From Escherichia phage VEc20, in the sequence record MN022785.1: 64,000 nt of DNA; one strand, given 5' to 3'. The position numbers were made by a program, and so were the translations under genes. Below the pieces are notes generated by a model. The model was given only the letters and a program-made list of their open reading frames with translations. It had not been told where the DNA came from and did not search any database. Within the stretch, counting starts at the first letter, position 1. Each line of letters opens with the position of its first letter. Below, in pieces: positions 7,147-38,982 of this stretch.

Positions 7147-7175
7147 TAATACCATAGTTTGAACTCGTTGTAAAC
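7147..7175 (-). promoter_or_regulatory. T4-type early promoter-like element (GTTTACA -35, TATTAT -10 on the minus strand)
   Basis: Reverse complement reads GTTTACA, 17 nt, TATTAT; the tgtaaacaactttgtgaaaaat repeat is shared with other such elements. Confidence 0.5.
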
Positions 7176-7250
7176 AACTTTGTGAAAAATATTTTAGGGA
7201 ATGATAAGAAAGGAACGATAACTTAGAATGGTAATATACAGAATGTGAGA

Positions 7251-7272
7251 AAGAAAGGCCCAGAGGGCCCGT
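7251..7272 (-). terminator. Hairpin terminator-like element downstream of the nrdH-like gene
   Basis: ggcccagagggcc palindrome followed by a T-rich run on the minus strand. Confidence 0.45.
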
Positions 7273-7273
7273 C

Positions 7274-7598
7274 TTAATCTTCTATGATATCTCTATCATA
7301 TCCAAGTGAAATGAGAGTTTCTTTGAAGTGTTTAATGTTCTTTTGTCTAGAATCATTAATAAAAATGACTGGATAACGAATGTTAAGAGATGTGAATCCA
7401 GCGCGTTTAGCAAGAGATACAATCAGCGGACGATCATACTCAATCTTACCATTATTTGTAAGAACTTTATAGAAAGTAAAAGGAGCATTGAGCTCCTTTA
7501 GAAGTTTTGTAACTGATTGACATCCAGGACAACGACCTACTTCATCTGGAATTCCATAGACTTCAATCTTATTCTTTAAGTTCGAGTTTTGTTCCACG
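7274..7598 (-). CDS. nrdH: Glutaredoxin-like protein (NrdH-like), probable GTG start
   Basis: CPGC redox motif in a glutaredoxin-like fold; no ATG before the domain, GTG at 7598 is preceded by AAGGA. Position next to nrdG/nrdD as in T4. Confidence 0.5.
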
Positions 7599-7880
7599 AG
7601 AAATAATTCCTTGGTAAGCCCAATAAGGAGGATTAACAGAATCCTCGCCAGAGTTTTCTTCAGGAAAATAAACCTGGATAACAAATCCAGATGCATCAAA
7701 GGTAAAATAAACCGTAGGCAGTTCACCTAACAATTCGGCACGAGCATTAATTTCTTCGAGATCTCGTTCACGTCCAGCCCAAAAACTAGGATTTAGACTA
7801 CATTCGTAAAAATAATAGTCATTACCGAACATATCAAAACCCTTCCAACTCTCTACCACATACCGCTCAAAACTAATCAT
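7569..7880 (-). CDS. Hypothetical protein
   Basis: 103-aa ORF. Confidence 0.5.
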   Translation of the reverse strand: MISFERYVVESWKGFDMFGNDYYFYECSLNPSFWAGRERDLEEINARAELLGELPTVYFTFDASGFVIQVYFPEENSGEDSVNPPYWAYQGIISRGTKLELKE

Positions 7881-7882
7881 AA

Positions 7883-8098
7883 TTAAGCCTTTTTATCAAG
7901 AACAGAATTCAGCTTGTTAGTAATTTTATCCAGACGCTCATTGAACTCGCTAGAAGATAAACCCTTTTCTGGAGAAATCAAACTAATCACGAAAAATATA
8001 GCAATAAAAGGAATAAGGAAAATAGCTCCAACTGCCATAAACAGAAAGAATGTTACAGTTGTAAGAAAATCAGCTAAACCTTTACGAAATTTATACAT
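7883..8098 (-). CDS. Small membrane protein
   Basis: 71 aa with one strongly hydrophobic segment (FFLFMAVGAIFLIPFIAIFFVISLI). Confidence 0.5.
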   Translation of the reverse strand: MYKFRKGLADFLTTVTFFLFMAVGAIFLIPFIAIFFVISLISPEKGLSSSEFNERLDKITNKLNSVLDKKA

Positions 8099-8213
8099 AT
8101 TTTACCCTTAATTGATTAACCAAGCATTGATAAGCACTAAACTATACTGCGAATAAAATTCTGGACCAAAATGAAAAATCATATCATTTATAGTATCCAT
8201 AATGTAATTCAAT

Positions 8214-8684
8214 TTAATCATGTTTCCACACCCCATCGGTATTTGACCAAAGCCGCTGATTATCTGATCCTCTCCACAGCTTTTTGGTCGGAAGATTTTT
8301 CTCATACTTCCCATCAATAATAACATCAACATATTTAAGCATTTCTAGTTGTTTAATATCTTCAAACTTATATCCTGTCCACAACCAAATGCTTTTATTT
8401 GGATAAAGATTTTTTACTGTTTGAACAATGCAATGAATAACATCTCGATTATCAGGATAGAGAGGGTCTCCTCCAGTTATAGTTAATCCTTCTATATAAT
8501 CATTATTCAAACATTCAATTAATTGTTCTAGTGTTTCACCAGTGAATGGAATACCATTTCTAGCATTCCATGTTGATTTATTATAACACCCTTCGCATTT
8601 ATGCAAACAACCTGTAACGAAAAGAACGACCCTGCAACCAGGGCCATTCACAAAATCGCAAGGATAAAATCTATCATAATTCAT
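8214..8684 (-). CDS. nrdG: Anaerobic ribonucleotide reductase activating protein (radical SAM)
   Basis: 156 aa; CxxxCxxC cluster (CLHKCEGC); ATGA overlap with nrdD. Confidence 0.9.
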   Translation of the reverse strand: MNYDRFYPCDFVNGPGCRVVLFVTGCLHKCEGCYNKSTWNARNGIPFTGETLEQLIECLNNDYIEGLTITGGDPLYPDNRDVIHCIVQTVKNLYPNKSIWLWTGYKFEDIKQLEMLKYVDVIIDGKYEKNLPTKKLWRGSDNQRLWSNTDGVWKHD

Positions 8685-10498
8685 TGATGCTTAACCCTAT
8701 GCATGATTTCTTTATTTTTGCCGAGATTAAATCCGCGTTCGTTCGGATTTCCCAAATAACCACACGTTCTTCTTATTGTATTCATCTTTTTAGGATCAGT
8801 TTCTCCACAAATAGAACAAACAAATCCGTTTTCAGTAGGAGTCATTTCATGGGTACTTCCGCATGTAAAACATTTATCCACTGGCATATTAACACCAAAA
8901 TAATCTAAATGTTGTGCAGCATAATCCCATACGGCCTCAAGACCTTTCAAGTTATTTTTCATATCAGGAAGTTCAACATAAGAAATGTGACCACCTGTCG
9001 CAATGAAATGATATGGCGCTTCACGAGAAATCTTTTCAAACGGAGTAATATTTTCTTCTACTGAGACATGGAAACTGTTAGTGTACCAGCCTTTATCGGT
9101 AACATCTTTTACGCTTCCATATTTTTCTGTATCGAGTTTACAGAAGCGATAACAAAGGTTTTCAGCAGGAGTCGAATATAAACTAAAAGCAAATCCGGTT
9201 CTTTCAGTCCACTGTTTAAGATGAGCATTCATTTTAGTTAAAATTTCTCGTCCAATATCACGACCGACAAGAATATTCAATTCGTGAATACCAATGTATC
9301 CTAAAGACACTGAACTTCTACCGTTTTTAAATAACTCAATTATATCGTCATCAGGTTTAAGACGAACCCCAAATGCACCTTCTTGGTAAAGAATAGGAGC
9401 AACAGTAGCTTTAACTCCTTTTAAGGAACTAATTCTACACATCAAAGCTTCAAAACATAAATCCATTCGTTCATTGAACAATTCAACAAATTTCTGTTCA
9501 TTGAACTGTGTTCCAATATAAGAATCTAACGCGATGCGAGGAAGATTCAGTGTTACAACACCAAGATTATTACGTCCATCAAGAATTTCATTACCAGTCG
9601 AATCTTTCCATACGCCCAAGAAACTACGGCAACCCATTGGAGAAACAGGAATAGATGAGCCGGTGATAGCTTTATTGTTCTTAGCTGAAATAATATCAGG
9701 ATACATCCTTTTGCTTGCACACTCTAAAGCAAGCTGCTTAATATCATAGTTCGGATCGTCTTTATAAAGATTAACGCCTTCTTCAACGAACATAACAAGC
9801 TTAGGGAAAATAGGAGTTATCCCATCACGACCGAGACCTTTAATACGATTTTTCAGAATTGCTTTCTGAATCATTCGTTCAGTCCAGTCAGTTCCCGTAC
9901 CAAATGTAATTGTTACAAAAGGAGTCTGTCCGTTTGAACTAAAGAGAGTATTTACTTCATATTCATAAGCTTGGAATGCATCGTATACATCTTTTTCTGT
10001 TTTAGATTGAGCATAATTCAACGCATCAGCGATTTGCCATTTTTCTGCATCCTCAATATGTTTTGCATAGGTGCGTTTAACATAAGGAGAAAGTACTTTA
10101 TCGACATTAGCAAATGTAGTTCCGCCATATTGGTGAGAAGCAACCTGTGCAGTAATTTGTGCCATAATTGCAGTAGCAACACCGATTGATTTAGGAGTTT
10201 CAATCTGTGCATTACCAAGCTTAAATCCGTTTTCAAGCATTCCTTTTAAATCTACTAAACAACAATTAGTAAATGGAAGAGCAGGGGAATAATCAATATC
10301 ATGGAAATGAATAATTCCGCTTTCATGCGCTTTCATAATAAAAGACGGGACCATATTTTTGGCAATGTGTTTAGACACAATACCAGCCATAAGGTCCCGT
10401 TGAGTTGGAAAAACACGAGAATCTTTATTAGCATTCTCGTTTAAAAGGTCTTTATTAGTTTTATGAATCAATCCTTCAATTTCTTTTTCAATTGTCAT
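8681..10498 (-). CDS. nrdD: Anaerobic ribonucleoside-triphosphate reductase (class III, glycyl radical); uninterrupted
   Basis: 605 aa; C-terminal glycyl-radical motif RRTCGYLG and Cys-rich zinc ribbon; single continuous ORF. Confidence 0.95.
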   Translation of the reverse strand: MTIEKEIEGLIHKTNKDLLNENANKDSRVFPTQRDLMAGIVSKHIAKNMVPSFIMKAHESGIIHFHDIDYSPALPFTNCCLVDLKGMLENGFKLGNAQIETPKSIGVATAIMAQITAQVASHQYGGTTFANVDKVLSPYVKRTYAKHIEDAEKWQIADALNYAQSKTEKDVYDAFQAYEYEVNTLFSSNGQTPFVTITFGTGTDWTERMIQKAILKNRIKGLGRDGITPIFPKLVMFVEEGVNLYKDDPNYDIKQLALECASKRMYPDIISAKNNKAITGSSIPVSPMGCRSFLGVWKDSTGNEILDGRNNLGVVTLNLPRIALDSYIGTQFNEQKFVELFNERMDLCFEALMCRISSLKGVKATVAPILYQEGAFGVRLKPDDDIIELFKNGRSSVSLGYIGIHELNILVGRDIGREILTKMNAHLKQWTERTGFAFSLYSTPAENLCYRFCKLDTEKYGSVKDVTDKGWYTNSFHVSVEENITPFEKISREAPYHFIATGGHISYVELPDMKNNLKGLEAVWDYAAQHLDYFGVNMPVDKCFTCGSTHEMTPTENGFVCSICGETDPKKMNTIRRTCGYLGNPNERGFNLGKNKEIMHRVKHQ

Positions 10499-10968
10499 TT
10501 TAAACTCTTTCTAAGCTGCTTCTTAAATGAAGCTATTAACTGTGTTTTGGTGTCAGATTCATTATATTCAAATCCTCTTTGAAGCATCTCGGCCATCATT
10601 TCCTCTTTTCCTAAACGAGAAAATTCCTTTGATTTATCTCCAACAAAGTTAGGGTGAATATTATTTTGGGTGTAATCGGATTTTAAATAAGTAAGTAAAT
10701 TTTCTAACCATTCAAGATAATCAACACCTTGTCCCTTTAAGCCAGAACGATTAAATTTGTGCTTCATTTGACCTTCTGCAGCATTGCAGAGATTACAAAG
10801 CAATCCACGTACCTTTCCTGCTTTTGGTCCATTTAATTCATGGTCATGGTCGAGGTGATTAGCTTGAACATCAGGATTTAGTTCTCGTTGGCAAATTAAG
10901 CATTTACCGTTTTGTGCATTATAAAATTTTTGTTTTTCTTCTTTGTATAATTTGCCAGTCAATAACAT
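10495..10968 (-). CDS. 49: Endonuclease VII (Holliday junction resolvase)
   Basis: 157 aa, same as T4 endo VII; zinc-binding Cys cluster (CLICQRE...CNLCN). Confidence 0.9.
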   Translation of the reverse strand: MLLTGKLYKEEKQKFYNAQNGKCLICQRELNPDVQANHLDHDHELNGPKAGKVRGLLCNLCNAAEGQMKHKFNRSGLKGQGVDYLEWLENLLTYLKSDYTQNNIHPNFVGDKSKEFSRLGKEEMMAEMLQRGFEYNESDTKTQLIASFKKQLRKSLK

Positions 10969-11000
10969 AATAAAACCCTTACCTTAAATAGATAAGGGTA

Positions 11001-11056
11001 TTTATTATTTTTAAGTATTGTAAAACATTCGATGCAATCGTTTATACTGTCGAATC
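11001..11056. repeat. Direct repeat copy 1 (about 50 bp), partner at 11219-11285
   Basis: ttttaagtattgtaaaacattcgatgcaatcgtttatactgtcgaatc versus ttcaagtattgtaaaacatttgatgcaatcgcttatattgccgaatc. Confidence 0.8.
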
Positions 11057-11187
11057 ATCTTTTTAGTAGGACGAGAATAGGTTCCTACGCAAGTGGTCAT
11101 ATGAGGGTCCGTAGAATGTCCTTTAATAAAAAGTTTCCAAACCTTACCGCCATTTAACTTTTCAGTATAAACCAATTCGGTTTTCAT
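11011..11187 (-). CDS. Small ORF (58 aa) sharing its C-terminal tail with the neighbouring 167-aa protein
   Basis: Hand-translated; ends IRQYKRLHRMFYNT, compare QKIRQYKRLHQMFYNT at the end of 11224..11727. Below the ORF-track size cutoff. Confidence 0.35.
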   Translation of the reverse strand: MKTELVYTEKLNGGKVWKLFIKGHSTDPHMTTCVGTYSRPTKKMIRQYKRLHRMFYNT

Positions 11188-11218
11188 TAAAATGTCCTGT
11201 CAGAAAAAGAATTTTGAG

Positions 11219-11285
11219 TTTTTTCAAGTATTGTAAAACATTTGATGCAATCGCTTATATTGCCGAATCTTTTGGTCAGAAAAAG
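11219..11285. repeat. Direct repeat copy 2
   Basis: See copy 1 at 11001-11056. Confidence 0.8.
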
Positions 11286-11727
11286 AAATTTGAGTTTCAA
11301 GCCATTCAATGTACTCTGCGGCAGCTTGCATCAGGTTACCTTCATAGCCATCGTTATTTTCTTGTGCAGCTAATTTAGCTAATGCGTATGAAATACGTTC
11401 ACCTTGAAAATCGGCTTTAGGCTTCTGAACAACTTGATTAGTTCTCTCTACAACTTCCTCGATTTCACCATTTTCAACGGATTCAGTATTCCACAAACAC
11501 CAATACGTAATTGGCTTATCATAGATGTTAATAATCTTTCCGTCGGAAAGTTCAATTTCAACAATTCCAGTGTCAGGCTCTATATCATCTTCACATTCTT
11601 TTGCAAGTTCACGAACTTTAAAGACAGTACCTGCACTAAGTTCCGGCCAGTAATTACATAGCCCTGTATCAATACGATTAATTCTAAACCACTTATCTAC
11701 TGTAATCATGTCCCATCTCCATATCAA
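11224..11727 (-). CDS. Hypothetical early protein (position of T4 pin/49.x genes)
   Basis: 167-aa ORF; true start may be the internal Met at 11709. Confidence 0.55.
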   Translation of the reverse strand: MIWRWDMITVDKWFRINRIDTGLCNYWPELSAGTVFKVRELAKECEDDIEPDTGIVEIELSDGKIINIYDKPITYWCLWNTESVENGEIEEVVERTNQVVQKPKADFQGERISYALAKLAAQENNDGYEGNLMQAAAEYIEWLETQISFSDQKIRQYKRLHQMFYNT

Positions 11728-11831
11728 TTAAGTCATTTATCGTTGGTTCATTATATACTGTTTCTTCATCAGTGTAAACCGGTTCTTCCGGCTCTGGCTC
11801 TACAGTTTCCCATCTAGCCGCCCACCAAGGT

Positions 11832-12002: not shown

Positions 12003-12004
12003 AT

Positions 12005-12480: not shown

Positions 12481-12481
12481 A

Positions 12482-12724: not shown

Positions 12725-12726
12725 TT

Positions 12727-14042: not shown

Positions 14043-14096
14043 GTTCTTCTCACTTGGTTAATGGTTTATACTCCGAGCCATCCTTGGCTTTAAATT

Positions 14097-18073: not shown

Positions 18074-18100
18074 TTTGTGTTCCTCCGTAGTTGATAGTTG

Positions 18101-18131
18101 TATAGTACCACAGAGGAACAGTCTTGTAAAC
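18101..18131 (-). promoter_or_regulatory. PeSL-type early promoter-like element
   Basis: Minus strand GTTTACA, 17 nt, TACTATA; conserved gatagttgtatagtacca block. Confidence 0.5.
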
Positions 18132-19507: not shown

Positions 19508-19542
19508 TTTATTCTCCAATTTTACATTTGTTTTGATAGGGT

Positions 19543-19573
19543 AATAGTATCACACTACTACCCTGCTGTAAAC
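19543..19573 (-). promoter_or_regulatory. PeSL-type early promoter-like element
   Basis: GTTTACA, 17 nt, TACTAT on the minus strand with an inverted repeat around the -10. Confidence 0.5.
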
Positions 19574-19576: not shown

Positions 19577-19840
19577 TTATTTTAATGTTTGCCAAATTTT
19601 TACTGCTTCGCGACGAGATACTTCTACAGCTCCAAGTTCTACAGCTTTTTGGCGTCGCCGAGCGTGTAAGTCATAATGTTTAATGCGTTTATCTTGAAAC
19701 CAAGAACGTTTCATTCCTATTGCTTCTGCCATTTCGTGAAGCTCTTCAATATCTCCATCAGTGAACATATGACAATTTTTAGTTGGATGACCGCGAAGTT
19801 TCCATCCATGATTCATTAAAACATCTACGTAAACTGTCAT
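19577..19840 (-). CDS. Hypothetical protein
   Basis: 87-aa ORF (MTVYVDVLMNHGWKLRGH...CHMF...HYDL). Confidence 0.5.
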   Translation of the reverse strand: MTVYVDVLMNHGWKLRGHPTKNCHMFTDGDIEELHEMAEAIGMKRSWFQDKRIKHYDLHARRRQKAVELGAVEVSRREAVKIWQTLK

Positions 19841-19988
19841 TGATTCTTCTCCAAATAAGTTTCGATAATTTTCTGGGCGAGATAAACCGCGTTATCTTCA
19901 GTTGCGTCTTCTAAGAAACTTTCAAAACACTCTGAAATTTCTTCTGTATCAATCAACTTTTTTACTTCAATTGGTGTAATTTTCATTT
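19839..19988 (-). CDS. Small acidic hypothetical protein
   Basis: Hand-translated 49-aa ORF with ATGA overlap to the downstream gene; below ORF-track cutoff. Confidence 0.3.
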
Positions 19989-20021: not shown

Positions 20022-20052
20022 TATAGTACCATAAAGCTTTATGCTTGTAAAC
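20022..20052 (-). promoter_or_regulatory. PeSL-type early promoter-like element
   Basis: GTTTACA, 17 nt, TACTATA; preceded on the minus strand by the hairpin at 20081-20104 and an A/T-rich block. Confidence 0.5.
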
Positions 20053-20080
20053 AACTTTGTGAAAAATTTTTGAAATAAAA

Positions 20081-20104
20081 AAGGGGACCTCTAGGGCCCC
20101 TTTT
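20081..20104 (-). terminator. GC hairpin (stem-loop part of a PeSL-like element)
   Basis: ggggacctctagggcccc followed by a T-run on the minus strand. Confidence 0.45.
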
Positions 20105-20110: not shown

Positions 20111-20611
20111 TTATTCCATTTCTATTATATGCATGCTCTTTTTGCTATCAAAATATATGTTTTTAACTGTTAACTCCGAATTAATTGGCAATAAAAACTC
20201 TCTTTCATAATCCACCATAGAAAGATTATCATAAAGCTTATTAAGCTTATCATCATCAATCTGGCCAGATTCTTCAATTGCGATTAAATTTTCTAAAATT
20301 TCAATCATAGCAGTTGAATAGTCAAAAACGTTTGCATTTTTTAACACTATTAAAACATTAGTCATATAGCGTTCTGCCGCAAATGTTTCAGCTATATGAG
20401 ATTCACTACTAAAGGAAGTTATTCTTTTAAATTTGATTCTCCTATTAACTTCAAACTTATAAGATAGTACTTCCTCTATTGTAAGTCCTCTAAAAAGCAC
20501 GTCTTTAATCTCAAGTTTGTCTTTAATGTAATCATTAACACGCTTATGATTAAAATCATTAATTTTGTTGCCAAGGCATTTCATTAAAATATGCATTGTG
20601 TTTCTCTTCAA
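20111..20611 (-). CDS. Hypothetical protein, cassette flanked by near-identical promoter/stem-loop repeats
   Basis: 166-aa ORF. Confidence 0.55.
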   Translation of the reverse strand: MKRNTMHILMKCLGNKINDFNHKRVNDYIKDKLEIKDVLFRGLTIEEVLSYKFEVNRRIKFKRITSFSSESHIAETFAAERYMTNVLIVLKNANVFDYSTAMIEILENLIAIEESGQIDDDKLNKLYDNLSMVDYEREFLLPINSELTVKNIYFDSKKSMHIIEME

Positions 20612-20643: not shown

Positions 20644-20673
20644 ATTATAATATGCTTTATGATAGAAGTAAAC
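20644..20673 (-). promoter_or_regulatory. Early promoter-like element with canonical -10
   Basis: Minus strand TTTACT, 17 nt, TATAAT. Confidence 0.55.
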
Positions 20674-20703
20674 CACTTTGTGAAAAATTTTTGAAATAAA
20701 AAA

Positions 20704-20721
20704 GGGAGCCCGAAGGCTCCC
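20704..20721 (-). terminator. UUCG-tetraloop hairpin
   Basis: gggagcccgaaggctccc. Confidence 0.5.
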
Positions 20722-20723
20722 TA

Positions 20724-21737: not shown

Positions 21738-22195
21738 TCAGCCTTATATTCAATAACAGGACACACTTTAGCTTTACGAGCTTTTAAAAATTCAACGATA
21801 ATCGATTTCTTGGGTTGAATAGGAGGTAAACCTTTATTTTTCCTATCAATGTTTTCTACGTGTAAAGCATAATCCTTTTTCCATTTATAATCTTTATATT
21901 TTTCACGCAAATGTACAGGAATAACAAATGAACCAATAATAAGTAAAACAAGCAAAATGGCAAGTATAAATGCTGATGGAAGCAAAGTCCATAAACTACC
22001 GAAAATAAGCCATCGTTGTAAGCTTTCTGCACAAATAATTGTTAGCCCTACGAGTATAGCACACCCAAAAATAGAAACGAAAAATGTAGGGATAACAATA
22101 GACCAAAAATATGCGCATAGTGTCTTAGGTCGTTGCCATTCATCGTTAAACAATTTGAATAATTTATAGTGCCAAGAGTTTTCATTAATAATCAT
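21734..22195 (-). CDS. Membrane protein (2-3 predicted TM helices), ATGA-coupled to the nucleotidyltransferase-like gene
   Basis: 153 aa with long hydrophobic stretches. Confidence 0.55.
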   Translation of the reverse strand: MIINENSWHYKLFKLFNDEWQRPKTLCAYFWSIVIPTFFVSIFGCAILVGLTIICAESLQRWLIFGSLWTLLPSAFILAILLVLLIIGSFVIPVHLREKYKDYKWKKDYALHVENIDRKNKGLPPIQPKKSIIVEFLKARKAKVCPVIEYKAE

Positions 22196-22197
22196 AA

Positions 22198-22719
22198 CTA
22201 TCCTTTCATTGAAGGCGTAACAGTTGTTAAATACTTAATCATAGCTTCAGCTTCTGATTTTGATAGTGAAATTTCTCCATTGTTTTGACGAATAGAAATA
22301 AAATCCGGATGACGGTCACCACCAGCTTTTAAAACACACATATAAGTATCAGTTTCATCTTCAATATTTGAAATGATTGAAGCAGTTCCACATGAATGCG
22401 GTTTTTGATAAATCAATACAGCTTTTCTTCCGCCATTTGACTGTTCATAAACTTTTAATACATCAAACAAATCACTTCTTTTATCAATAGCTAAAATGTT
22501 ATTTTCATCTTCAATGTTAAATCCTTCGGATACTTCATAAAGTGTCACCCATAAATCGCCAATATCAATAACAGCGTTCACTTTTCCATGACTTTCAAGA
22601 GCATGACAAATTTTCTTGATTTCGTCATAACTCATTTTAATAATATCATCTCCTTGAATAAGAAAGATGTCATTTTTAAATTCAACACGAATTAAACCAC
22701 TTCCACTTGAAATAAACAT
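22198..22719 (-). CDS. Hypothetical protein, paralog of 22726..23283
   Basis: 173 aa; C-terminal tail SKSEAEAMIKYLTTVTPSM resembles TKDEAIALKTYLDSVIPTM in the neighbour. Confidence 0.55.
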   Translation of the reverse strand: MFISSGSGLIRVEFKNDIFLIQGDDIIKMSYDEIKKICHALESHGKVNAVIDIGDLWVTLYEVSEGFNIEDENNILAIDKRSDLFDVLKVYEQSNGGRKAVLIYQKPHSCGTASIISNIEDETDTYMCVLKAGGDRHPDFISIRQNNGEISLSKSEAEAMIKYLTTVTPSMKG

Positions 22720-23283: not shown

Positions 23284-23418
23284 AATTACATACTCCTTTG
23301 AATAATATCAATAATGTTGTTCACCAGATTATAAGTAAACATTGGGTAATTATATTGAATCATTACATACACAACAAACAAAACTTTCATTCTCTTCTCC
23401 TTGACAGTTGACAAGATT

Positions 23419-23448
23419 ACTATACCATAACCTTGCCAACTTGTAAAC
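23419..23448 (-). promoter_or_regulatory. Early promoter-like element
   Basis: Minus strand TTTACA, 17 nt, TATAGT. Confidence 0.45.
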
Positions 23449-24260: not shown

Positions 24261-24297
24261 CGGTAAAATGAAAAAAGTCTCCCGAAGGAGACTAATG

Positions 24298-27953: not shown

Positions 27954-28415
27954 TCATTGAGTTTTAATTACTGCTTTAGAAGCCTTTCCTGGTAAACGAC
28001 GACTATTGATAATTGCCATCCTGCACTGAAGTGACGGGTCTTTGAACTTCGCATTAGGTTTACAAACTGTAAATCCAAGCCAAAGATTTCCATCTGTGAT
28101 TTCTAAACGTCCAGGACGATATTCAACCCCATCAATAAAATCCTCGTCAATATCAGGACGCGGAGGCATACTCAGGAATTCATTAACTTCTAAAACATGG
28201 TCTTTTATTTTATGGAATAATTCAAAAACGTATGTCTCATCAATCTCCCGTTGAATTGCGCGATCAAGAAGATGTTGAGAATATTTTAGATGAAACGATG
28301 AGACTCCTGCTGCTTTTGATGCCTCACGAATCTCATTGTTAATTTGACGAAACTCCGACTCAAAGTGACGACGAAGCTTATTTCGACGGATAAAAACTTC
28401 TGTATTGATAGTCAT
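27954..28415 (-). CDS. regB: Endoribonuclease RegB
   Basis: 153 aa as in T4 RegB; early-promoter-like element immediately upstream. Confidence 0.75.
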   Translation of the reverse strand: MTINTEVFIRRNKLRRHFESEFRQINNEIREASKAAGVSSFHLKYSQHLLDRAIQREIDETYVFELFHKIKDHVLEVNEFLSMPPRPDIDEDFIDGVEYRPGRLEITDGNLWLGFTVCKPNAKFKDPSLQCRMAIINSRRLPGKASKAVIKTQ

Positions 28416-28432
28416 GTTATTCTCCTCTTAAC

Positions 28433-28463
28433 TGATAGAAAAATTATACCACAGTCAAGAGGA
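28433..28463 (-). promoter_or_regulatory. Early promoter-like element upstream of regB
   Basis: Minus strand GTTTAC, 17 nt, TATAAT. Confidence 0.5.
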
Positions 28464-28474
28464 AAAGTAAACAG

Positions 28475-28795
28475 TTATTCTTTAAATCTAATCAATTTAT
28501 TCATAGACTTTGAAACTTCTGCACGAACCTCATGTAGATTTTTGAGCTGTTCAAGACGCTGCGTATAGTAAGCAATTTCATCTTCTTCGAGACAGTCCTG
28601 TGAATCTTCTTTAAGATACCGTGCATAGTCCTGGAAAGCGTTACGGACTACTTCCTGGAAGTCATCAAGACTTTGAATTTTCTTAGGAGCAGCAGACACA
28701 CGACGAGGGGCAGTATAATACTCATAACCAAACCCTGCGCTTAATTGAGCCATTAGTATTTTTCCTCTGGTTGGAACACAGCACGACAAGCCCAC
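28475..28795 (-). CDS. Hypothetical protein
   Basis: 106-aa ORF. Confidence 0.5.
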
Positions 28796-30613: not shown

Positions 30614-31030
30614 TTAAATGTAAATATTTTTGCCGTAATACTTATACCAGTGTGGCTTCATTAAAATTTTTTCATCGAGTCGTTGTTGACTCAACTTAAT
30701 AGCTGATTTGCATGGATTATAATCATTTTTCCATTCTACTGGAATATCGCTGATGTCAGGAACTTCAGTATCTTTTATACTGAACCCGCGTTTTAAGCAT
30801 TCCGTTATAATGTCCGATTGACGCTTTCGCAAAAATTCTAACTTATCGTAAAAGAAAGTAACATGACCAGAACCTAAAATAAATTTAGAAGATATTTTAA
30901 AATCTTTAACGCGCTTACCGTTTGCCACATGCTTACGAACTATACCAAAAACACGCGGCAATTCACGGTATTCTGCGATTAAATGTTGATCAGCAAGTTC
31001 AGATACTAAAGTCAAATTAATACGAGTCAT
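30614..31030 (-). CDS. denV: Endonuclease V (pyrimidine-dimer DNA glycosylase)
   Basis: 138 aa; [17 protein letters not shown]... close to recalled T4 endo V. Confidence 0.9.
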
Positions 31031-31046
31031 TTTATCCCTCCAAGTA

Positions 31047-31085
31047 ACTGTGAATATACTATCACAATTCTAGGAGAAAGTAAAC
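31047..31085 (-). promoter_or_regulatory. Early promoter-like element upstream of denV
   Basis: Minus strand GTTTAC, spacer, TAGTAT. Confidence 0.45.
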
Positions 31086-31089
31086 AACT

Positions 31090-33856: not shown

Positions 33857-33897
33857 TCCTATTTACTCCAAGTATAAGGGGCCGAAGCCCCTTATCA

Positions 33898-34491: not shown

Positions 34492-34593
34492 AGTATTTCC
34501 TTAGGTTAATTGAGATTTAAAATCCGTAGGAGTTATAATACTCTATCGTCAAATTATAGGCTCATAATATCTCAATCATGAGCCTGCGTAAAC

Positions 34594-34857
34594 TTATTTC
34601 ATATTATTGAAATATTCTTCTGCGATTTCGTCGTTATCATGGTAAACTTTAGAAGACAGTTTAACATAACCTTCTGCTGTGAACATATTAATCACAACTT
34701 TTACAGTATACCACTGACCGTCTTCATTACCCATTACTGCGTAAGTTTCAAACATCGGATGATCAGGACCGATAACTTTAATATCATTCACTGTACGACC
34801 GAAATCTTCTGAAACGCATTTCATAAAGAAGTTGAACAGTTCGCCGTAATTATCCAT
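34594..34857 (-). CDS. Hypothetical protein
   Basis: ORF 34594..34911; start moved to MDNYGEL because a promoter-like element lies at 34901-34931. Confidence 0.5.
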   Translation of the reverse strand: MDNYGELFNFFMKCVSEDFGRTVNDIKVIGPDHPMFETYAVMGNEDGQWYTVKVVINMFTAEGYVKLSSKVYHDNDEIAEEYFNNMK

Positions 34858-34900
34858 TTCATTCTCCAAGTTGTTTTTCTGTATCAGTAGTTGATAGTTG

Positions 34901-34931
34901 TATAGTACCATGGAAGAACAGGGATGTAAAC
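34901..34931 (-). promoter_or_regulatory. PeSL-type early promoter-like element
   Basis: GTTTACA, 17 nt, TACTATA. Confidence 0.5.
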
Positions 34932-35062
34932 AGTTTTGTGAAAAAATTTTTAAAAAGTTTTAGGGAATTCTAGGGTCAGGAGGGACAATTAAAAGGTAGG
35001 ATAATATATTATAAAGGGTATAAACTAAATGATGCCTAGAGAGACAAGGAAAGGCCTAGATA

Positions 35063-35097
35063 CCAAAAAGCCCCAACCTTTTGGTCGGGGCTAAGAA
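35063..35097 (-). terminator. Rho-independent terminator (copy 1 of a repeated hairpin)
   Basis: Minus strand agccccgaccaaaaggttggggct followed by TTTTT; near-identical to the hairpin at 35596-35632. Confidence 0.7.
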
Positions 35098-35099
35098 TG

Positions 35100-35561
35100 T
35101 TATTTGATTTGTTTAGCAGACCAAATGCGGTCTTTGATGATTTTTTGGAGGTCTTCAACATACTCTAGGTCATGAGCATGTGGATTATCTTTGAAACTAT
35201 GAGCTCGCGCAAGTTTCTGGCCTTCGGTCTTAATTATCAAAAGTTCTTTAAGAATTGCTTCATACCTAGAGATAATTCCTTTAGCAATATTTTTTTCTTG
35301 TGCTGCTTTAGGGTCAGCCTTAGGAGCAGGTTTACCAGAAGGTTTTTCGAAAGCCGCGCCAGTAGCAACCAGGCTTTTCCAGGCGGTGGTAACATAGTTA
35401 CCCACAAAGCCTTCAGCTCTCATATCGTCGTAGAACTTGTACCGAGATTCGTCAGAAGCATCTTTATAAGAATATTTACCAGCTTTAATAGCAGCAGTTG
35501 CTACAGCGCGAACATCTGAAGCGGATGCTTCGGTCATTAAAAATTGAGCATAAGTTTTCAT
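35100..35561 (-). CDS. Internal-protein-like protein with capsid-targeting-sequence-like N-terminus
   Basis: 153 aa beginning MKTYAQF, compare the T4 IPIII capsid-targeting sequence MKTYQEFIAE; Lys/Ala-rich; flanked by the two repeated terminators. Confidence 0.6.
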   Translation of the reverse strand: MKTYAQFLMTEASASDVRAVATAAIKAGKYSYKDASDESRYKFYDDMRAEGFVGNYVTTAWKSLVATGAAFEKPSGKPAPKADPKAAQEKNIAKGIISRYEAILKELLIIKTEGQKLARAHSFKDNPHAHDLEYVEDLQKIIKDRIWSAKQIK

Positions 35562-35595
35562 TGTTATTTCCTGTGTTAATTAACTCATCTATTTA

Positions 35596-35632
35596 TACTA
35601 AAAAGCCCCAACCTTTCGATCGGGGCTAAGCC
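35596..35632 (-). terminator. Rho-independent terminator (copy 2)
   Basis: Minus strand agccccgatcgaaaggttggggct followed by TTTTT. Confidence 0.7.
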
Positions 35633-35639
35633 TTGCGGC

Positions 35640-35935
35640 AACCTTGTCGGGGTTCCACCTGCTAAGGCAAGTGTTTGTACGAAACGCCGGGATTCGAACC
35701 CGGTTATTAAGTAGTTGACGCTACTCAATATTTTTAAAAGGCCATATCTCGACCATATCCGAACGTTCCGTCAAAAACGCTACTCGGCTTACGGCAAAGA
35801 TATTTCCTCGAATCGATAATTCGGTGCGCCGTTTCTGCTGTGATAGTAAAGAGCCAGAACACAGTAAAACTGTGGGAGGAAACTATACTCCAGGGAACAT
35901 CAGTCCGACGACTTACCGGTAGCGACCCGGTTTCT
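35640..35935 (-). ncRNA. Putative stable structured RNA(s) with a tRNA-like T-arm (possible counterpart of T4 RNA species 1/2)
   Basis: No ORF; canonical T-arm CCGGG-TTCGAAT-CCCGG at 35687-35703 with a possible 7-bp acceptor pairing (35680-35686 with 35764-35770); followed by a terminator. Confidence 0.4.
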
Positions 35936-36285
35936 TAATATTCTTTTAAAGAATCAATATATTCACGGCGTTTACGCCACAAATCAATTGCTTCATACGC
36001 GGATTCAGCATTTCGAATTAGCCGGCATTTATGTAAAGACTTATGATTTTGATATTGTGTAGATAACGGAATTGTATCTAAAAGGTCTTTACGATCAAAA
36101 TATTCGTAACCATCTAAACCAAATGAACGATTTTTGAGAAATTGCCAATGACCATATTCGTTTTCGACATAAACATAATCTGCATGCTGATAAAGCAAAT
36201 TAATTACACGTTCAGAAATAACAGTATCATTATGATTAAAATAGAATGTTAAATCATGAACTACTAAATAAACATTACCTTTCAT
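35935..36285 (-). CDS. Hypothetical protein between tRNA-Arg and the structured-RNA region
   Basis: 116-aa ORF. Confidence 0.5.
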   Translation of the reverse strand: MKGNVYLVVHDLTFYFNHNDTVISERVINLLYQHADYVYVENEYGHWQFLKNRSFGLDGYEYFDRKDLLDTIPLSTQYQNHKSLHKCRLIRNAESAYEAIDLWRKRREYIDSLKEY

Positions 36286-36303
36286 ATTTTCCTCACTTAT
36301 AAT

Positions 36304-36379
36304 TGGTCGAGGCAGTAGGGATCGAACCTACGACCTAGGACTTAGAAGGTCCTTGCTCTTCCTTCTGAGCTATGCCCCG
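36304..36379 (-). tRNA. tRNA-Arg (anticodon UCU), CCA encoded
   Basis: Hand-folded cloverleaf: 7-bp acceptor with one G-U, T-arm GTAGG/CCTAC, anticodon loop CUUCUAA. Confidence 0.8.
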
Positions 36380-36383
36380 TAAT

Positions 36384-36459
36384 TGGGGTGACCGATGGGA
36401 GTCGAACCCATGACTACGAGAATCACAATCTCGAGTTCTACCAACTGAACTACGGCCAC
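36384..36459 (-). tRNA. tRNA-His (anticodon GUG), discriminator C, CCA encoded
   Basis: Hand-folded: T-arm ATGGG/CCCAT, anticodon stem CGAGA/TCTCG, loop UUGUGAU; G-1 not encoded. Confidence 0.65.
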
Positions 36460-36573
36460 ATTAATACCTACTCCAACAATCAAGATGTCTTCACACGAAA
36501 TTAAGAGAAGAGTGATCAGTTCAACCCCTATAATCGCGTCAAGTAGATATTAATGTGACAGTTGTCACAAATT

Positions 36574-36649
36574 TGGCGGACGTGATAGGATTCGAACCTA
36601 TAACCAATCGCTTAACAGGCGATCGCTCTGCCATTGAGCTACACATCCA
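36574..36649 (-). tRNA. tRNA-Asn (anticodon GUU)
   Basis: Hand-folded: T-arm ATAGG/CCTAT, anticodon stem ATCGC/GCGAT, loop CUGUUAA. Confidence 0.7.
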
Positions 36650-36652
36650 AAT

Positions 36653-36739
36653 TGGTGGGGAGTGGTGGAGTCGAACCACCCGAGTCGCAATGACAATGAA
36701 TTTACAGTCCACACCGCTACATCTACGGGATAACTCCCC
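36653..36739 (-). tRNA. Type II (long variable arm) tRNA, probably tRNA-Tyr (GUA)
   Basis: Perfect 7-bp acceptor, T-arm GGTGG/CCACC, 87 nt; anticodon loop CUGUAAA; D-arm and anticodon stem irregular. Confidence 0.55.
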
Positions 36740-36748
36740 AAATTAATT

Positions 36749-36823
36749 TGGTGGCCCTGGGTGGAATTGAACCACCATCTGGCGATTATGAGTCGCTTGC
36801 TTGAACCTTCCAGCTACAGGGCC
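36749..36823 (-). tRNA. tRNA with CAU anticodon (Met, or Ile if lysidine-modified as in T4)
   Basis: Perfect acceptor stem, T-loop TTCAATT, anticodon loop CUCAUAA. Confidence 0.75.
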
Positions 36824-36824
36824 T

Positions 36825-36900
36825 TGGTGCTGATTGACGGAATCGAACCGCCGACCTTCTCATTACAAGTGAGTTGCTCTACCTACTGAGCTAAATCAGC
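36825..36900 (-). tRNA. tRNA-Thr (anticodon UGU)
   Basis: Perfect acceptor, anticodon loop CUUGUAA. Confidence 0.8.
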
Positions 36901-36905
36901 AAAAC

Positions 36906-36995
36906 TGGCGGAGGCGATAGGATTTGAACCTATGAGTCGCCGGAGCGACTGCCGGTTTTCAAGACCGGTGCATTAAACCACTCTGCCACGCCTCC
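36906..36995 (-). tRNA. tRNA-Ser (anticodon UGA), type II
   Basis: 90 nt, variable-arm hairpin, anticodon loop CUUGAAA. Confidence 0.8.
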
Positions 36996-36997
36996 AG

Positions 36998-37071
36998 TCT
37001 CCGTGGCAGGATTTGAACCTACGACATTCTGCTCCCAAAGCAGACGCTCTACCAAACTGAGCTACACGGAG
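36998..37071 (-). tRNA. tRNA-Pro (anticodon UGG), CCA not encoded
   Basis: Anticodon loop UUUGGGA; 3' end 2 nt from the tRNA-Ser 5' end (Pro-Ser dimeric precursor as in T4). Confidence 0.8.
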
Positions 37072-37081
37072 TAAATTAAAT

Positions 37082-37155
<74 letters not shown>

Positions 37156-37160
37156 AAATT

Positions 37161-37247
37161 TGGTGCGAGAAGTGGGACTCGAACCCACAAGGAAATCATT
37201 CCGCAGCATTTTAAGTGCTGTGCCTTTACCAATTTGACCATTCTCGC
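37161..37247 (-). tRNA. tRNA-Leu (anticodon UAA), type II
   Basis: 87 nt, perfect acceptor, anticodon stem CAGCA/TGCTG, loop CUUAAAA. Confidence 0.8.
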
Positions 37248-37248
37248 G

Positions 37249-37321
37249 CTGGGAATAAAGGACTCGAACCTTTGCATCTAGCAGTCAAAGTGCTATGCCT
37301 TACCAACTTGGCTAATTCCCA
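37249..37321 (-). tRNA. tRNA-Gln (anticodon UUG), CCA not encoded
   Basis: Anticodon loop CUUUGAC; 3' end abuts the tRNA-Leu 5' end (Gln-Leu dimeric precursor as in T4). Confidence 0.8.
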
Positions 37322-37418
37322 ATTATTAACAAAGGCTCTCTAACAAGAACCCTTGATGATAGAGGGTATTAATCAGTGCGGTATGAGTTAATAATAACAA
37401 ATAATTCTTAAAGCATAT

Positions 37419-37706
37419 TTACCATTTATGATAATACGTATTTACGATACATTCAAGACCCAAAGGATTCTTGAAAATATTATATTCAAGAGGACCTTTT
37501 TCCGTTTCAATAAAGAAATCAAAGTTAACTGTGTTAAATTTACGGTCTTCCTTCACTAATTTAACTTGAGAAGATGAACGGTCAATGTAAACCTTTTCAA
37601 CTTCAAAACAGGTTAAAATGCCATAATCATCAATCAAGGCTTTAGCTGCTTCTTGATCATATTTATATCCATTTTCAATGGATGATACTTTAGCATAAAG
37701 AATCAT
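37419..37706 (-). CDS. Hypothetical protein
   Basis: 95-aa ORF. Confidence 0.5.
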   Translation of the reverse strand: MILYAKVSSIENGYKYDQEAAKALIDDYGILTCFEVEKVYIDRSSSQVKLVKEDRKFNTVNFDFFIETEKGPLEYNIFKNPLGLECIVNTYYHKW

Positions 37707-37708
37707 TA

Positions 37709-38107
37709 TCAGCCTTCATCAACAATAGTATGAGTATTGGCATTTACGATTTGCCACCAGTCAAAGCGATTAGAACCCATCGGTTTGTTTTCATTTTCTT
37801 TGATAATGTCACGGAGTTCATCTTCAGAGAATGCTTTAGCGATTAAATCGGTATACCCACCACGTGGATAATAATTATCACCTGCAAACAAAAGGAAATT
37901 TACCTTCCCGGAAGGAACATATGCTTCCTTAGGATACTTGTTTCCTGCGTGGTCAACCACTTCAATATAACGGTAAGGAATATCGGTTCTTTCAACCCAT
38001 TGCCATGCCGCCGCAGGGGAATCGAAAGCATCTACACCTAAACGATTATCTTCATCTTTAGACGGATTATTTTCGTAATCCGCATATACATAATATTCAA
38101 CGTTCAT
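37709..38107 (-). CDS. Hypothetical protein
   Basis: 132-aa ORF; ATGA overlap with the downstream gene. Confidence 0.5.
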   Translation of the reverse strand: MNVEYYVYADYENNPSKDEDNRLGVDAFDSPAAAWQWVERTDIPYRYIEVVDHAGNKYPKEAYVPSGKVNFLLFAGDNYYPRGGYTDLIAKAFSEDELRDIIKENENKPMGSNRFDWWQIVNANTHTIVDEG

Positions 38108-38292
38108 TATTCACCTTTAGAAATTTTATCCATAACGATAGCAATTAAACCAATTAAAAATGCTACTACAAGTGAAAAAACATTTTCTGCCGTAGTCAAT
38201 AATCCGCATATAAATCCAACAAACATTGAAAAACTGAAAGCGGAAGCAGAAATTGCAATAGCAACATTTCGAATTAATTCACAACGTTTCAT
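38107..38292 (-). CDS. Small membrane protein
   Basis: ORF 38107..38433; start moved to MKRCELIRN because of the promoter-like element at 38320-38350; hydrophobic helices. Confidence 0.45.
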   Translation of the reverse strand: MKRCELIRNVAIAISASAFSFSMFVGFICGLLTTAENVFSLVVAFLIGLIAIVMDKISKGE

Positions 38293-38319
38293 TTTATTCT
38301 CCTCAGTAGTTGATAGGGT

Positions 38320-38350
38320 AATAGTATCACTACCCCATCTAAAAGTAAAC
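38320..38350 (-). promoter_or_regulatory. PeSL-type early promoter-like element
   Basis: GTTTAC, spacer, TACTAT with a flanking inverted repeat. Confidence 0.5.
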
Positions 38351-38584
38351 TTATTTTTTACGAAAAATTGATTTATTTTCTGCTGCCCATTTTTCAATAA
38401 CTGCAGCAGGACCAGTAACAACAATTTTATCACCGTAATCTTCTGCGGCGAGTTGACCGAAATTATCTAATGCATCACGAAGAACTCCATGAGGCATTTC
38501 ACCCATTTTATCTTTCTTGCCGGTGTAAATAAACTCAACTTTTACATCAGAAGATTCAGCGATAAACTCTTTGAAAGTTTTCAT
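38351..38584 (-). CDS. Internal-protein-like small protein with capsid-targeting sequence
   Basis: ORF 38351..38596; starts MKTFKEFIAE at the internal Met, matching the T4 IP capsid-targeting sequence pattern. Confidence 0.6.
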   Translation of the reverse strand: MKTFKEFIAESSDVKVEFIYTGKKDKMGEMPHGVLRDALDNFGQLAAEDYGDKIVVTGPAAVIEKWAAENKSIFRKK

Positions 38585-38620
38585 TTTAGTTTCCATTCGA
38601 TTGTTTTGTTTTGATAGGGT

Positions 38621-38651
38621 AATAGTATCACAACTAAAACCCTATGTAAAC
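38621..38651 (-). promoter_or_regulatory. PeSL-type early promoter-like element (repeat shared with 38952-38982)
   Basis: Shares the atgtaaacaactttgtgaaattattttaaatc block with the next element. Confidence 0.5.
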
Positions 38652-38663
38652 AACTTTGTGAAA

Positions 38664-38921
38664 TTATTTTAAATCTTCTAATCGTTTCTTCATCTTAGAA
38701 CCATTTTTAGCAATTTCTCCTGCATCGGAGCATAATGCTAAAAGTGCTTTAACTTTCGTTTGGTCTCCTTTAAAAGATGAAGGATCTACTGCAGCAGCAA
38801 GTTCTTTAATACGAGAGAAAAGACGCTCAGCTTCAGCTAAAGCCATTCCAAGCTTTACTTCCATACCGTGGGAAGATTCAGTGATAGTAGTTTTTGCAGC
38901 AAACTCTTTGAAAGTTTTCAT
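38664..38921 (-). CDS. Internal protein I-like protein with capsid-targeting sequence
   Basis: 85 aa beginning MKTFKEFAAK; lies at the T4 ipI position between the tRNAs and 57B. Confidence 0.6.
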   Translation of the reverse strand: MKTFKEFAAKTTITESSHGMEVKLGMALAEAERLFSRIKELAAAVDPSSFKGDQTKVKALLALCSDAGEIAKNGSKMKKRLEDLK

Positions 38922-38951
38922 TTTTATTTTCCTAATTAATTTTGATGAGGT

Positions 38952-38982
38952 AATAGTATCACTACCTCATCAGTATGTAAAC
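38952..38982 (-). promoter_or_regulatory. PeSL-type early promoter-like element
   Basis: GTTTACA, 17 nt, TACTAT; inverted repeat tgatgaggta/tacctcatca around the -10. Confidence 0.5.

Follow-up and report, generated by a model that had tools for sequence, protein, structure and literature searches.

In the 64,000-nt stretch of DNA from Escherichia phage VEc20 that we analysed (record MN022785.1; hereafter the window), a short repeated element recurs on the minus strand between positions 7147 and 38982, mostly in the gaps between genes. We suggest that these repeats are predicted T4-type early promoters, that many of them are coupled to stem-loops, and that they also act as recombination substrates at which the intervening genes can be exchanged; taken together, we consider this explanation highly probable. 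The finding itself is already described, since a consensus has been published for the T4/PST pair within the model of promoter-early stem-loop (PeSL) cassettes of T4-like phages (Arbiol et al. 2010, PMC2839356; Comeau et al. 2014, PMC4122927), the T4 early promoters are known, and the hairpins were annotated in T4 in 1986. An initial annotation of the window, made from the DNA letters, had proposed the same model; its observation is confirmed, and its interpretation is supported with caveats that are set out below.

The window belongs to a T2/T4-like Tequatrovirus: a 5-kb probe from it matches Escherichia phage vB_EcoM_G29 at 98.1% identity, and matching Tequatrovirus records number in the hundreds. 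Sizes of the open reading frames (ORFs) and alignment to T4 (NC_000866) give a two-block layout. In the first block, from 1 to 42368, the genes lie on the minus strand in the order 47/a-gt, 55, nrdD, nrdC, nrdC.x/mobD.x, rI, tk, regB, denV and e, followed by the transfer RNA (tRNA) cluster, the internal protein (ip) locus and genes 57B/57A, 1, 3, 2 and 4; the plus-strand block starts at 42416 with the baseplate genes 53, 5, 6, 7 and continues onward. Because this gene order aligns with that of T4, the interval 7147-38982 is the classical T-even early-gene region, which is dispensable and variable (hyperplastic). All modules and genes given with coordinates below are on the minus strand.

The consensus TTTACW-N17-TAYWAT was taken from the literature, where it is published for the PeSLs of PST and T4 (PMC4122927), and was not derived here. 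It has 14 exact matches where shuffles give 0.41 (0 of 100 shuffles reach 14), and every one of these is a minus-strand match within 6707-38981; with one mismatch allowed, 32 matches are found against 10.6 expected. The motif search thus bears out the count of at least 14 copies in the initial annotation as well as its 17-nt spacer and its TACTAT, TATAGT or TATAAT -10, and the example pairs that it singled out are present at the coordinates it gave. We catalogued 17 elements, written here as P and a coordinate: the 14 exact matches and three one-mismatch copies (23448, 31085 and 34593) that keep GTTTAC and the 17-nt spacing. Throughout the catalogue the spacer is fixed at 17 nt and the -10 hexamer is TACTAT, TATAAT, TATAGT or TATTAT; an extended -10 (TGn) can be read from the alignment in 13 of the 17 copies, and every copy has an A/T-rich upstream region. 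The information profile brings out GTTTAC, the TGn together with the -10, and a CTATCAA-like block 3' of the -10 as conserved. Fifteen of the 17 copies are intergenic, lying between a stop codon and the following Shine-Dalgarno (SD) sequence and start codon; the start codon is in most copies about 20-40 nt 3' of the predicted start site, and all copies are on the early-gene strand.

Not every part of the element as first described carries this signal. A GTTTACA -35 with a conserved upstream block had been claimed, and the block (tttcacaaagtt, also written TTTCACAAAGTT) is indeed significant, with six copies against 0.25 expected, but it is present in those six only (7175, 20052, 20673, 34931, 38651 and 38982), and the GTTTACA heptamer by itself shows no significant excess in the window (17 vs 11.4). 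A generic sigma-70 scan of the window is likewise not enriched (98 vs 85; 76 vs 76); the signal resides solely in the composite T4-type motif. To call the flanking pairs near-identical is an overstatement: 20022-20104 and 20644-20721 share an exact run of 32 nt and 38621-38651 and 38952-38982 one of 33 nt, but overall the two pairs are identical at 63/86 and 24/31 positions, and over all pairs of whole modules the median is 46% identity with an 8.5-nt exact run. Two of the exact hits look atypical and weigh against reading every match as a promoter. The one at 6736 (6707-6736) lies inside a 55.5-like ORF and could be an internal promoter or a chance match, while the one at 11779 (11750-11779), 5' of a pin homologue, is an uncertain promoter; both are without TGn and without a hairpin, and their promoter status may be doubtful.

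T4 early promoters form a 'UP/-35/TGn/-10' class with GTTTAC at -36 to -31 (Hinton 2010, PMC2988021; Nolan et al. 2006, PMC1524935), and several copies in the window are their orthologues. The T4 record U76612 annotates 'early promoter 57.9' and 'early promoter 54.4', each with a terminator, and 'early promoter 50.0', and also has -35/-10 signals 5' of mobD.2 and nrdC.8; these features align at 94-100% identity with P24260, P20052/P20673, P15156, P23448 and P18131. P24260 (24231-24293), which has a TTCG-loop terminator upstream at 24276-24293, is 'early promoter 57.9' at 99% identity to the annotated feature, and P15156 (15127-15156), 5' of nrdC.4, is 'early promoter 50.0' at 100% identity over 60 nt. 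P18131 (18078-18131), 5' of nrdC.8, is 98% identical to the -35/-10 signals of the T4 record, P23448 (23406-23448), with a TATAGT -10 and 5' of the mobD.2 homologue, also matches such signals, and the core of P20052 matches the core of 'early promoter 54.4'. In the T4 record X04567 of 1986, four inverted repeats, A to D, are labelled 'put. stem-loop structure; pot. transcription terminator'; the -10 region falls in the loop of each, and the ribosome-binding sites of denV and ORF 61.9 (regB) are within a 3' arm. Repeat D is 100% identical to 28400-28488 of the window and repeat A (T4 ipIII) matches P31085. Overall, seven catalogued copies coincide at 93-100% identity with curated promoters or inverted repeats in the two records, and the orthologous set consists of PE57.9, PE54.4, PE50.0 and the promoters of nrdC.8, mobD.2, regB and ipIII. 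Because of this sequence architecture and this orthology, we identify the repeats as predicted sigma-70-dependent T4-type early promoters. In the hyperplastic region nrdC-mobD-tk-regB-e-tRNA-ip they would stand at the start of the leftward early transcription units, and for annotation they would give reliable early transcription-unit boundaries in this phage.

The second part of the explanation, that genes between modules are exchanged by crossovers within them, is best followed at 19.5-20.7 kb. Here the order in the window is P20673, a 161-amino-acid (aa) ORF, a terminator, P20052, a 49-aa ORF and an 87-aa DUF4031 protein, P19573 and nrdC.10. P20673 (20644-20722) carries the upstream block and a TTCG-loop terminator (20703-20722) and heads the cassette of the 161-aa ORF (20111-20596; PHROG 832, E=7.5e-24), a single gene with its own promoter and terminator. 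P20052 (20023-20100), also with the upstream block and with a terminator at 20084-20100, shares the 32-nt exact run with the P20673 module; the two-ORF cassette (19577-19986; Pfam DUF4031, E=1e-21) lies between it and P19573 (19538-19573), which has a hairpin at 19538-19564 (z -3.15) and stands 5' of nrdC.10. All four combinations of presence and absence of the two cassettes are seen among relatives: both are missing from T4, Lutter, RB3, L008 and L024, only that of the 161-aa ORF is found in T2 and N2, only the DUF4031 cassette in DalCa, L006 and L007, and both in G29 and ACG-C40. The 1.4-kb stretch matches 549 database records, only 9 of which extend over 80% or more of it. The junctions are of at least five kinds, all within about -70 to +36 of a module and several with 11-50 nt of overlapping homology; a cluster of breakpoints at 20656, in P20673, is made up of seven relatives. 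The PE54.4 of T4 is itself a chimera, with the terminator/UP part of P20673 and the core of P20052, and in both T4 and T2 nrdC.10 is driven by a core of the P20052 type and not of the P19573 type.

The same cassette is found beyond the genus. The segment 20095-20690, made up of the promoter core, the ORF and the terminator stem, has a counterpart of 96.8% identity in the Gelderlandvirus STML-198, a Salmonella phage, while the flanking genes there, nrdC.10-like and nrdC.11-like, are only 75% and 67% identical to those of the window. Its upstream junction is in the UP/-35 block, and at the downstream junction a truncated terminator is fused to the -10 of the next promoter. The Citrobacter phages CF1 and Moon carry the 161-aa cassette at 96-97% identity with the same right edge (window 20679). 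From these sequences, the 161-aa ORF, a predicted ADP-ribosylase-like gene, appears to have moved recently between phage genera. As to what it encodes, PHROG 832 is 'RNA polymerase ADP-ribosylase', the ORF is called 'ADP-ribosylase' in some relatives, and R (LFRG), S-x-S (SFSS) and E-x-E (ERE) can be recognized by eye as in small ADP-ribosyltransferases; it has no Pfam hit and no meaningful PDB sequence match.

A similar situation is found at the ip locus, where each gene between 38351 and 38921 is preceded by an early promoter module and begins with the same leader codons (MKTFKEF). P38982 (38943-38994), with the G of its -35 at 38982, its -10 at 38953-38958, TTTCACAAAGTT at 38983-38994 and a hairpin at 38943-38972 (-17.4 kcal/mol, z -4.75), is 5' of an 85-aa Ip5-like internal head protein gene (38664-38921; PHROG 3499 'internal head protein', E=4e-49), which forms a single-ORF cassette with P38651 at its other end. 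P38651 (38614-38663; hairpin 38614-38645, z -3.9) has the 33-nt exact run in common with P38982, and between it and P38350 lies a second single-ORF cassette, that of an 81-aa internal virion protein gene (38351-38596; PHROG 8111, E=4e-51); P38350 (38312-38350; hairpin 38312-38339, z -2.5) is 5' of the trna.4 homologue. These two genes are replaced or deleted in T4, T2, RB3, L057 and Lutter: the 85-aa gene is replaced in T4 and L057, and the 81-aa gene is replaced in T2 and RB3 and missing in Lutter, where the junction has 24 nt of homology in the promoter cores. Breakpoints at the locus fall at 38332, 38350, 38559, 38611 and 38894, those at 38332 and 38350 (P38350) involving five relatives. 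The example cassettes of the initial annotation are thus exchangeable, both at 19.5-20.7 kb and at the ip locus, where replacements and deletions have module breakpoints. Internal proteins are injected and are linked to host range and anti-restriction, and their genes are the other mobile single-gene cassettes here.

From these junction sequences we infer recombination within the modules. The modules are directly repeated and share exact runs of 20-33 nt, so that general homologous recombination can cross over in them; such crossovers would delete, insert or swap the ORFs in between, and a swapped ORF would thereby gain a ready-made promoter. Whether the modules are special in this respect was assessed with an indel panel of 13 relatives, in which the window was aligned to T4, T2, DalCa, RB3, Lutter, N2 and seven IMG/VR contigs. 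Between 5000 and 42400 there are 73 distinct breakpoint clusters, 14 of which fall in modules (-86 to +40 of the 17 elements, 5.8% of the region; p=7e-5 against a uniform null).

This enrichment has a simpler reading, in which the modules are purely regulatory and their link to gene shuffling is one of survivorship, indels surviving at gene boundaries where promoters happen to sit. Several results weigh in its favor and against a special role of the modules. Of the breakpoint clusters, 63 of 73 are at or near gene boundaries, which make up 25% of the sequence, and under a gene-boundary null the modules receive 14 of the 63, against 19.7% expected (p=0.35). Counted by junction, a breakpoint is present at 10 of 15 promoter junctions and at 28 of the 65 remaining ones (odds ratio 2.6, p=0.09). 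Among 12 clean homology-mediated deletions, seven occur at other repeats (SD+ATGAAAAC starts, tRNA T-arms, a 36-nt terminator repeat and a 63-nt repeat near gene 49), and many indels are insertions of T4 homing endonucleases (mobB, mobC, I-TevII, mobD, segB) or involve other microhomologies; stop/start overlaps are used as well. Against survivorship, however, speak several junctions whose 19-50 nt of overlapping homology lie exactly in repeated module sequence, the clean chimera of two modules that is PE54.4, and the inter-genus cassette that ends in modules at both sides; circular excision products between PeSLs have moreover been reported in RB49 and phi1 (Arbiol et al., PMC2839356). We therefore regard a purely regulatory role as unlikely, though far from negligible.

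The correlation between repeats and breakpoints that the initial annotation expected is accordingly present against a uniform null but not against other gene boundaries, and a preference for modules over those boundaries is not seen in this panel. Similarly, its claim that the modules mark the flanked ORFs as accessory stands for the loci that it cited, which do exchange, but not for e.8, nrdC.8 and regB, which are kept in the relatives examined (the regB promoter is identical in T4). Since promoter junctions are only somewhat more often broken and some of the genes are invariant, modules alone do not 'mark' accessory genes. The explanation that we prefer, as judged from the junctions, is that promoter modules are real crossover substrates and one class among several conserved expression signals that would be used in this way equally often. 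For the PeSL model, the clean chimeric junctions and the cassette transferred between genera are support, and the lack of a statistical preference over other gene boundaries in the window is a caution.

We consider it very improbable that the modules are dedicated, integron-like mobile elements whose stem-loop is the target of a specific recombinase or DNA-binding protein, an idea raised as speculation by Arbiol et al. (PMC2839356). The hairpins are conserved in structure and not in sequence, and one STML-198 junction is inside a terminator stem, as such a mechanism might predict. Hairpin sequences and positions are nevertheless heterogeneous, with no common recognition sequence; crossovers occur at many positions from -70 to +50, hairpin-free repeats are used equally, no candidate recombinase gene is seen with the cassettes in the Pfam/PHROG annotation of the window proteins, and T4 recombination needs only short homologies (PMC2839356). 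That the elements are chance matches of an AT-rich motif or promoters of another class (MotA-dependent middle or gp55 late), for which the lack of enrichment of GTTTACA alone and in the generic sigma-70 scans could be quoted, is ruled out for practical purposes by the excess of the composite motif on one strand and almost entirely between genes, by a -35 that is GTTTAC and not the MotA box TGCTT, by the absence of the late motif TATAAATA, and by the mapping onto named T4 early promoters.

The stem-loops that accompany the promoters are of two kinds, as the initial annotation had proposed. A GC hairpin with a T-run lies just upstream of the promoter in 4 of the 17 copies (20703-20722 and 24276-24293 with TTCG loops, 20084-20100, and 7256-7270). 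In eight others an inverted repeat folds over the promoter core: when the region from -37 to about +25 of each promoter was folded and compared with 200 dinucleotide-preserving shuffles, these eight had z between -3.15 and -5.12, no more than 1 of the 200 shuffles folding as well, and two more were at z -2.0 and -2.5. Counting the four terminators and the eight core hairpins, a stem-loop is present in 12 of the 17 copies; three copies have none. The core hairpins fall into two classes. In class A (38982, 38651, 38350, 19573, 34593 and 23448, the last with 15 bp at 23406-23441, z -5.1) the arms lie either side of the -10 and end near +4. In class B (28472 of regB, 31085 of denV and 18131 of nrdC.8) a pyrimidine-rich spacer forms the 5' arm and pairs with the GGAG-type SD of the downstream gene. 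The regB promoter P28472 (28420-28472) has such a hairpin at 28420-28466, with the -10 in the loop and the SD GAGGAG in the 3' arm (-22.9 kcal/mol, z -5.1); in P18131 (hairpin 18078-18120, z -4.3) the spacer TGTTCCTC pairs with the SD GGAGGAACA, and in P31085 (hairpin 31035-31079, z -3.6) TTTCTCC pairs with the denV SD GGAGGGA.

The 5' arm lies upstream of the predicted transcription start in class A and class B alike, and therefore the hairpin can form only in read-through RNA, or as a DNA cruciform. Arm sequences are wholly different among copies while complementarity is kept; a reading of the inverted repeats as sequence-specific operators was rejected on these grounds. In divergent T4-like orthologues of the regB, denV, nrdC.8 and trna.4 promoters the pairing of anti-SD and SD is also kept and the flanking stems differ (for example TTTTCCTCTT/AAGAGGAGAA, ATCTCCTGTAG/CTACAGGAGAT, ATCTCCTTTTAGT/ACTAAAAGGAGAT and CCTCCTTT/AAAGGAGG). 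MAFFT and RNAalifold gave no consensus structure for 14 regB promoter orthologues, because the stems are rebuilt with differing lengths in each lineage and the arms are out of register.

We surveyed 238 distinct early-promoter/gene units (65 clusters), drawn from the window and from 66 loci of T4-like phages. At these early promoters, an upstream terminator and a core hairpin almost exclude each other: a core hairpin is found in 2 of 28 units with an upstream terminator and in 137 of 210 without one (p=2e-9), and at the cluster level in 1 of 15 and 60 of 93 (p=2.5e-5). This exclusion suggests that the two placements could be alternative ways to handle read-through from upstream, either kind of stem-loop insulating its unit from upstream transcription or translation. 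In class B, where the 5' arm upstream of the internal promoter start fits a geometry of SD gating at regB, denV and nrdC.8, the anti-SD arm would mask the ribosome-binding site of the downstream gene solely on transcripts that come from upstream. A promoter-leader helix of -12 kcal/mol or stronger is found in 21% of the units and 13 of the 65 clusters, against 2.0% with swapped partners and 1.6% with shuffled spacers (binomial p=6e-10).

Other observations argue against such a role. Pairing of the SD with upstream bases had a probability of 0.52 in the survey and of 0.48 and 0.52 in the controls; this measure was dropped as uninformative and interaction free energy used instead. Only the strong-helix tail sets SD pairing apart from controls. 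Furthermore, class A hairpins neither touch the SD nor carry a U-run. That promoter-overlapping hairpins are read-through insulators and not classical terminators, as a functional alternative to an upstream intrinsic terminator, and that this is both true and undescribed, is a tentative suggestion to which we would give clearly less than an even chance. We did not find it in the PeSL papers or the 2010 T4 reviews, and the PeSL paper of 2010 (PMC2839356) contains neither 'translation' nor 'ribosome'; older T4 literature may discuss it. The exclusivity and the embedded anti-SD arm (~20% of promoters) are the only part of this work that might be new, and they suggest a testable rule for the independent expression of densely packed T4-like early genes. 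If the suggestion is true, regB, denV and nrdC.8 would be translated solely from their own early promoter, and the loss of translation could also trigger Rho-dependent polarity on read-through RNA.

The class B promoter P31085 (31035-31085) is also an example of promoter reassignment. Its orthologue in T4 is the promoter of ipIII (inverted repeat A in X04567), and in the window P31085 drives denV (region 30614-31085), ipIII and ipII being missing; T4 has 1094 nt with these two genes at 31035-31040, within the P31085 leader. The hybrid denV promoter has a spacer, TTTCTCCTAG, complementary to the denV SD region, CTTGGAGGGA, and the T4 ipIII version, TTTCTCTTGG, is different. T2 and RB3 have an ipIV-type gene at the denV position.

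Three further modules complete the set. P34931 (34902-34943), 5' of the e.8 homologue, has a degenerate upstream block and no significant hairpin. P34593 (34558-34593), in which TTTACG is the one mismatch, is 5' of the e.6 homologue and has a class A hairpin at 34558-34585 (z -3.7); at its breakpoints, 34545 and 34594, e.7-type genes are inserted in T4, T2, RB3, N2 and Lutter. P7175 (7146-7270) has the upstream block at 7176-7187 and its GC terminator (7256-7270) about 80 nt upstream.

Some variable sites of the region involve repeats other than promoter modules. A 153-aa ORF (35100-35561; PHROG 2280, unknown function) forms a terminator-bracketed cassette at 35060-35630 with no early promoter; it is flanked by 36-nt direct repeats at 35060-35095 and 35595-35630 (33/36 identical), each a strong intrinsic terminator hairpin. 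T4, T2, RB3 and N2 are without exactly the 500 nt between these terminator repeats, with a 35-nt junction overlap, and DalCa has an extra 659 nt at the site. A 63-nt direct repeat whose copies, at 10994-11056 and 11207-11269, are 83% identical lies 5' of gene 49 (endonuclease VII). It includes an inverted repeat, ATTCGA...TCGAAT, that surrounds a TATAAAC motif, and the approximately 163 nt between the copies are missing from eight relatives, with a 49-nt junction overlap. Early genes often start SD-N-ATGAAAAC (Met-Lys-Thr...), and these starts supply the homology at the junctions of several deletions of whole genes in relatives (pairs 14049/16164, 21747/23615, 32087/32543 and 19519/19980). In the tRNA cluster, 36415-36570 (156 nt) is missing in T2, RB3 and Lutter, with a 34-nt overlap in tRNA T-arm-like sequence.

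Two further ORFs, at 7574-7897 (103 aa) and 5445-5704 (89 aa), are not in T4, and the former is also not in T2, RB3 and Lutter; no early-promoter module borders either of them, and their gain or loss is not explained by the PeSL model. The homing-endonuclease genes of T4 (mobB, mobC, I-TevII with the nrdD intron, mobD and segB) are missing from the window phage, at 3870-3893, 8685, 9961, 21739-22700 and 35936-36803; the mobD position is occupied by two different ORFs, of which one encodes a putative transcription factor that is y05I-like (Pfam T4_y05I_N, T4_y05I_C). There are eleven tRNA genes at 36304-37321 (Arg, His, Asn, Tyr, Met/Ile(CAT), Thr, Ser, Pro, Gly, Leu and Gln), whereas T4 has eight. 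Hairpins of the GGGCC-GAAG-GCCC type are found in three copies at gene ends (2659-2679, 6297-6317 and 33875-33895); they have a UUCG loop on the minus strand and no link to early promoters, and are probably intrinsic terminators.

Compared with known systems, the modules differ in nothing essential from T4 early promoters: they have GTTTAC, the 17-nt spacer, TGn, a TAnnnT -10 and an A-rich upstream region, and they lie 5' of early genes; six copies are 94-100% identical to their orthologues, and P31085 is 93% identical to the inverted repeat that spans the -10 of ipIII. Nonetheless, where T4 has promoter 54.4 only, the window has a duplicated P20052/P20673 and the additional P19573, and it uses the ipIII promoter of T4 for denV. 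The initial annotation was correct in matching the elements to the PeSL model, which had already been extended to T4/PST with this consensus: as in PeSLs, an early promoter, an AT-rich region and a stem-loop are combined between one stop codon and the SD/ATG that follows it, and the copies are clustered in the hyperplastic region with exactly the PST/T4 consensus. The stem-loops are upstream of, between or over the promoter boxes, and indel or replacement junctions fall within modules, including in STML-198 a degraded downstream junction that corresponds to the 'half PeSL' of Comeau et al. Terminator or attenuator activity of the stem-loop and strong promoter activity in vivo have been shown only for RB49 and phi1 examples (PMC2839356); those PeSLs have TTGACA and polyG/polyC stems, whereas the stems in the window are AT-richer and heterogeneous. 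Of the PeSL mini-circles the window has the sequence prerequisite only, namely the exact 32-33-nt runs in flanking pairs, and unlike in the PeSL model the breakpoint association in our panel is not above that of other gene boundaries. Similar repeats at T-even internal protein loci are attributed to Repoila et al. 1994 where that work is cited in PMC2839356 and PMC4122927, and here too different ip genes occupy the locus in T4, T2, RB3, N2, DalCa and Lutter.

The predicted gating at regB, denV and nrdC.8 resembles that of e, soc, 49 and I-TevI of T4, where a promoter within a hairpin controls translation such that the ribosome-binding site is free only on transcripts begun at the internal promoter (Uzan and Miller 2010, PMC3014915). 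The SD is in the 3' arm and the 5' arm is upstream of the internal promoter in both groups. The T4 genes use late promoters, leading to late translation, whereas for regB, denV and nrdC.8, whose hairpins were labelled 'potential terminator' in X04567, the internal promoter is early and the sequence predicts gating to their own early transcripts; if this is true, it would be the mirror image of the e/soc/49/I-TevI control. Finally, the cassette of the 161-aa ORF, a single ORF with its own promoter and terminator between conserved genes, is reminiscent of lambdoid morons; morons, however, have no conserved flanks and differ in GC content from their surroundings, while the cassettes of the window are flanked by repeated modules and match the genome in composition.

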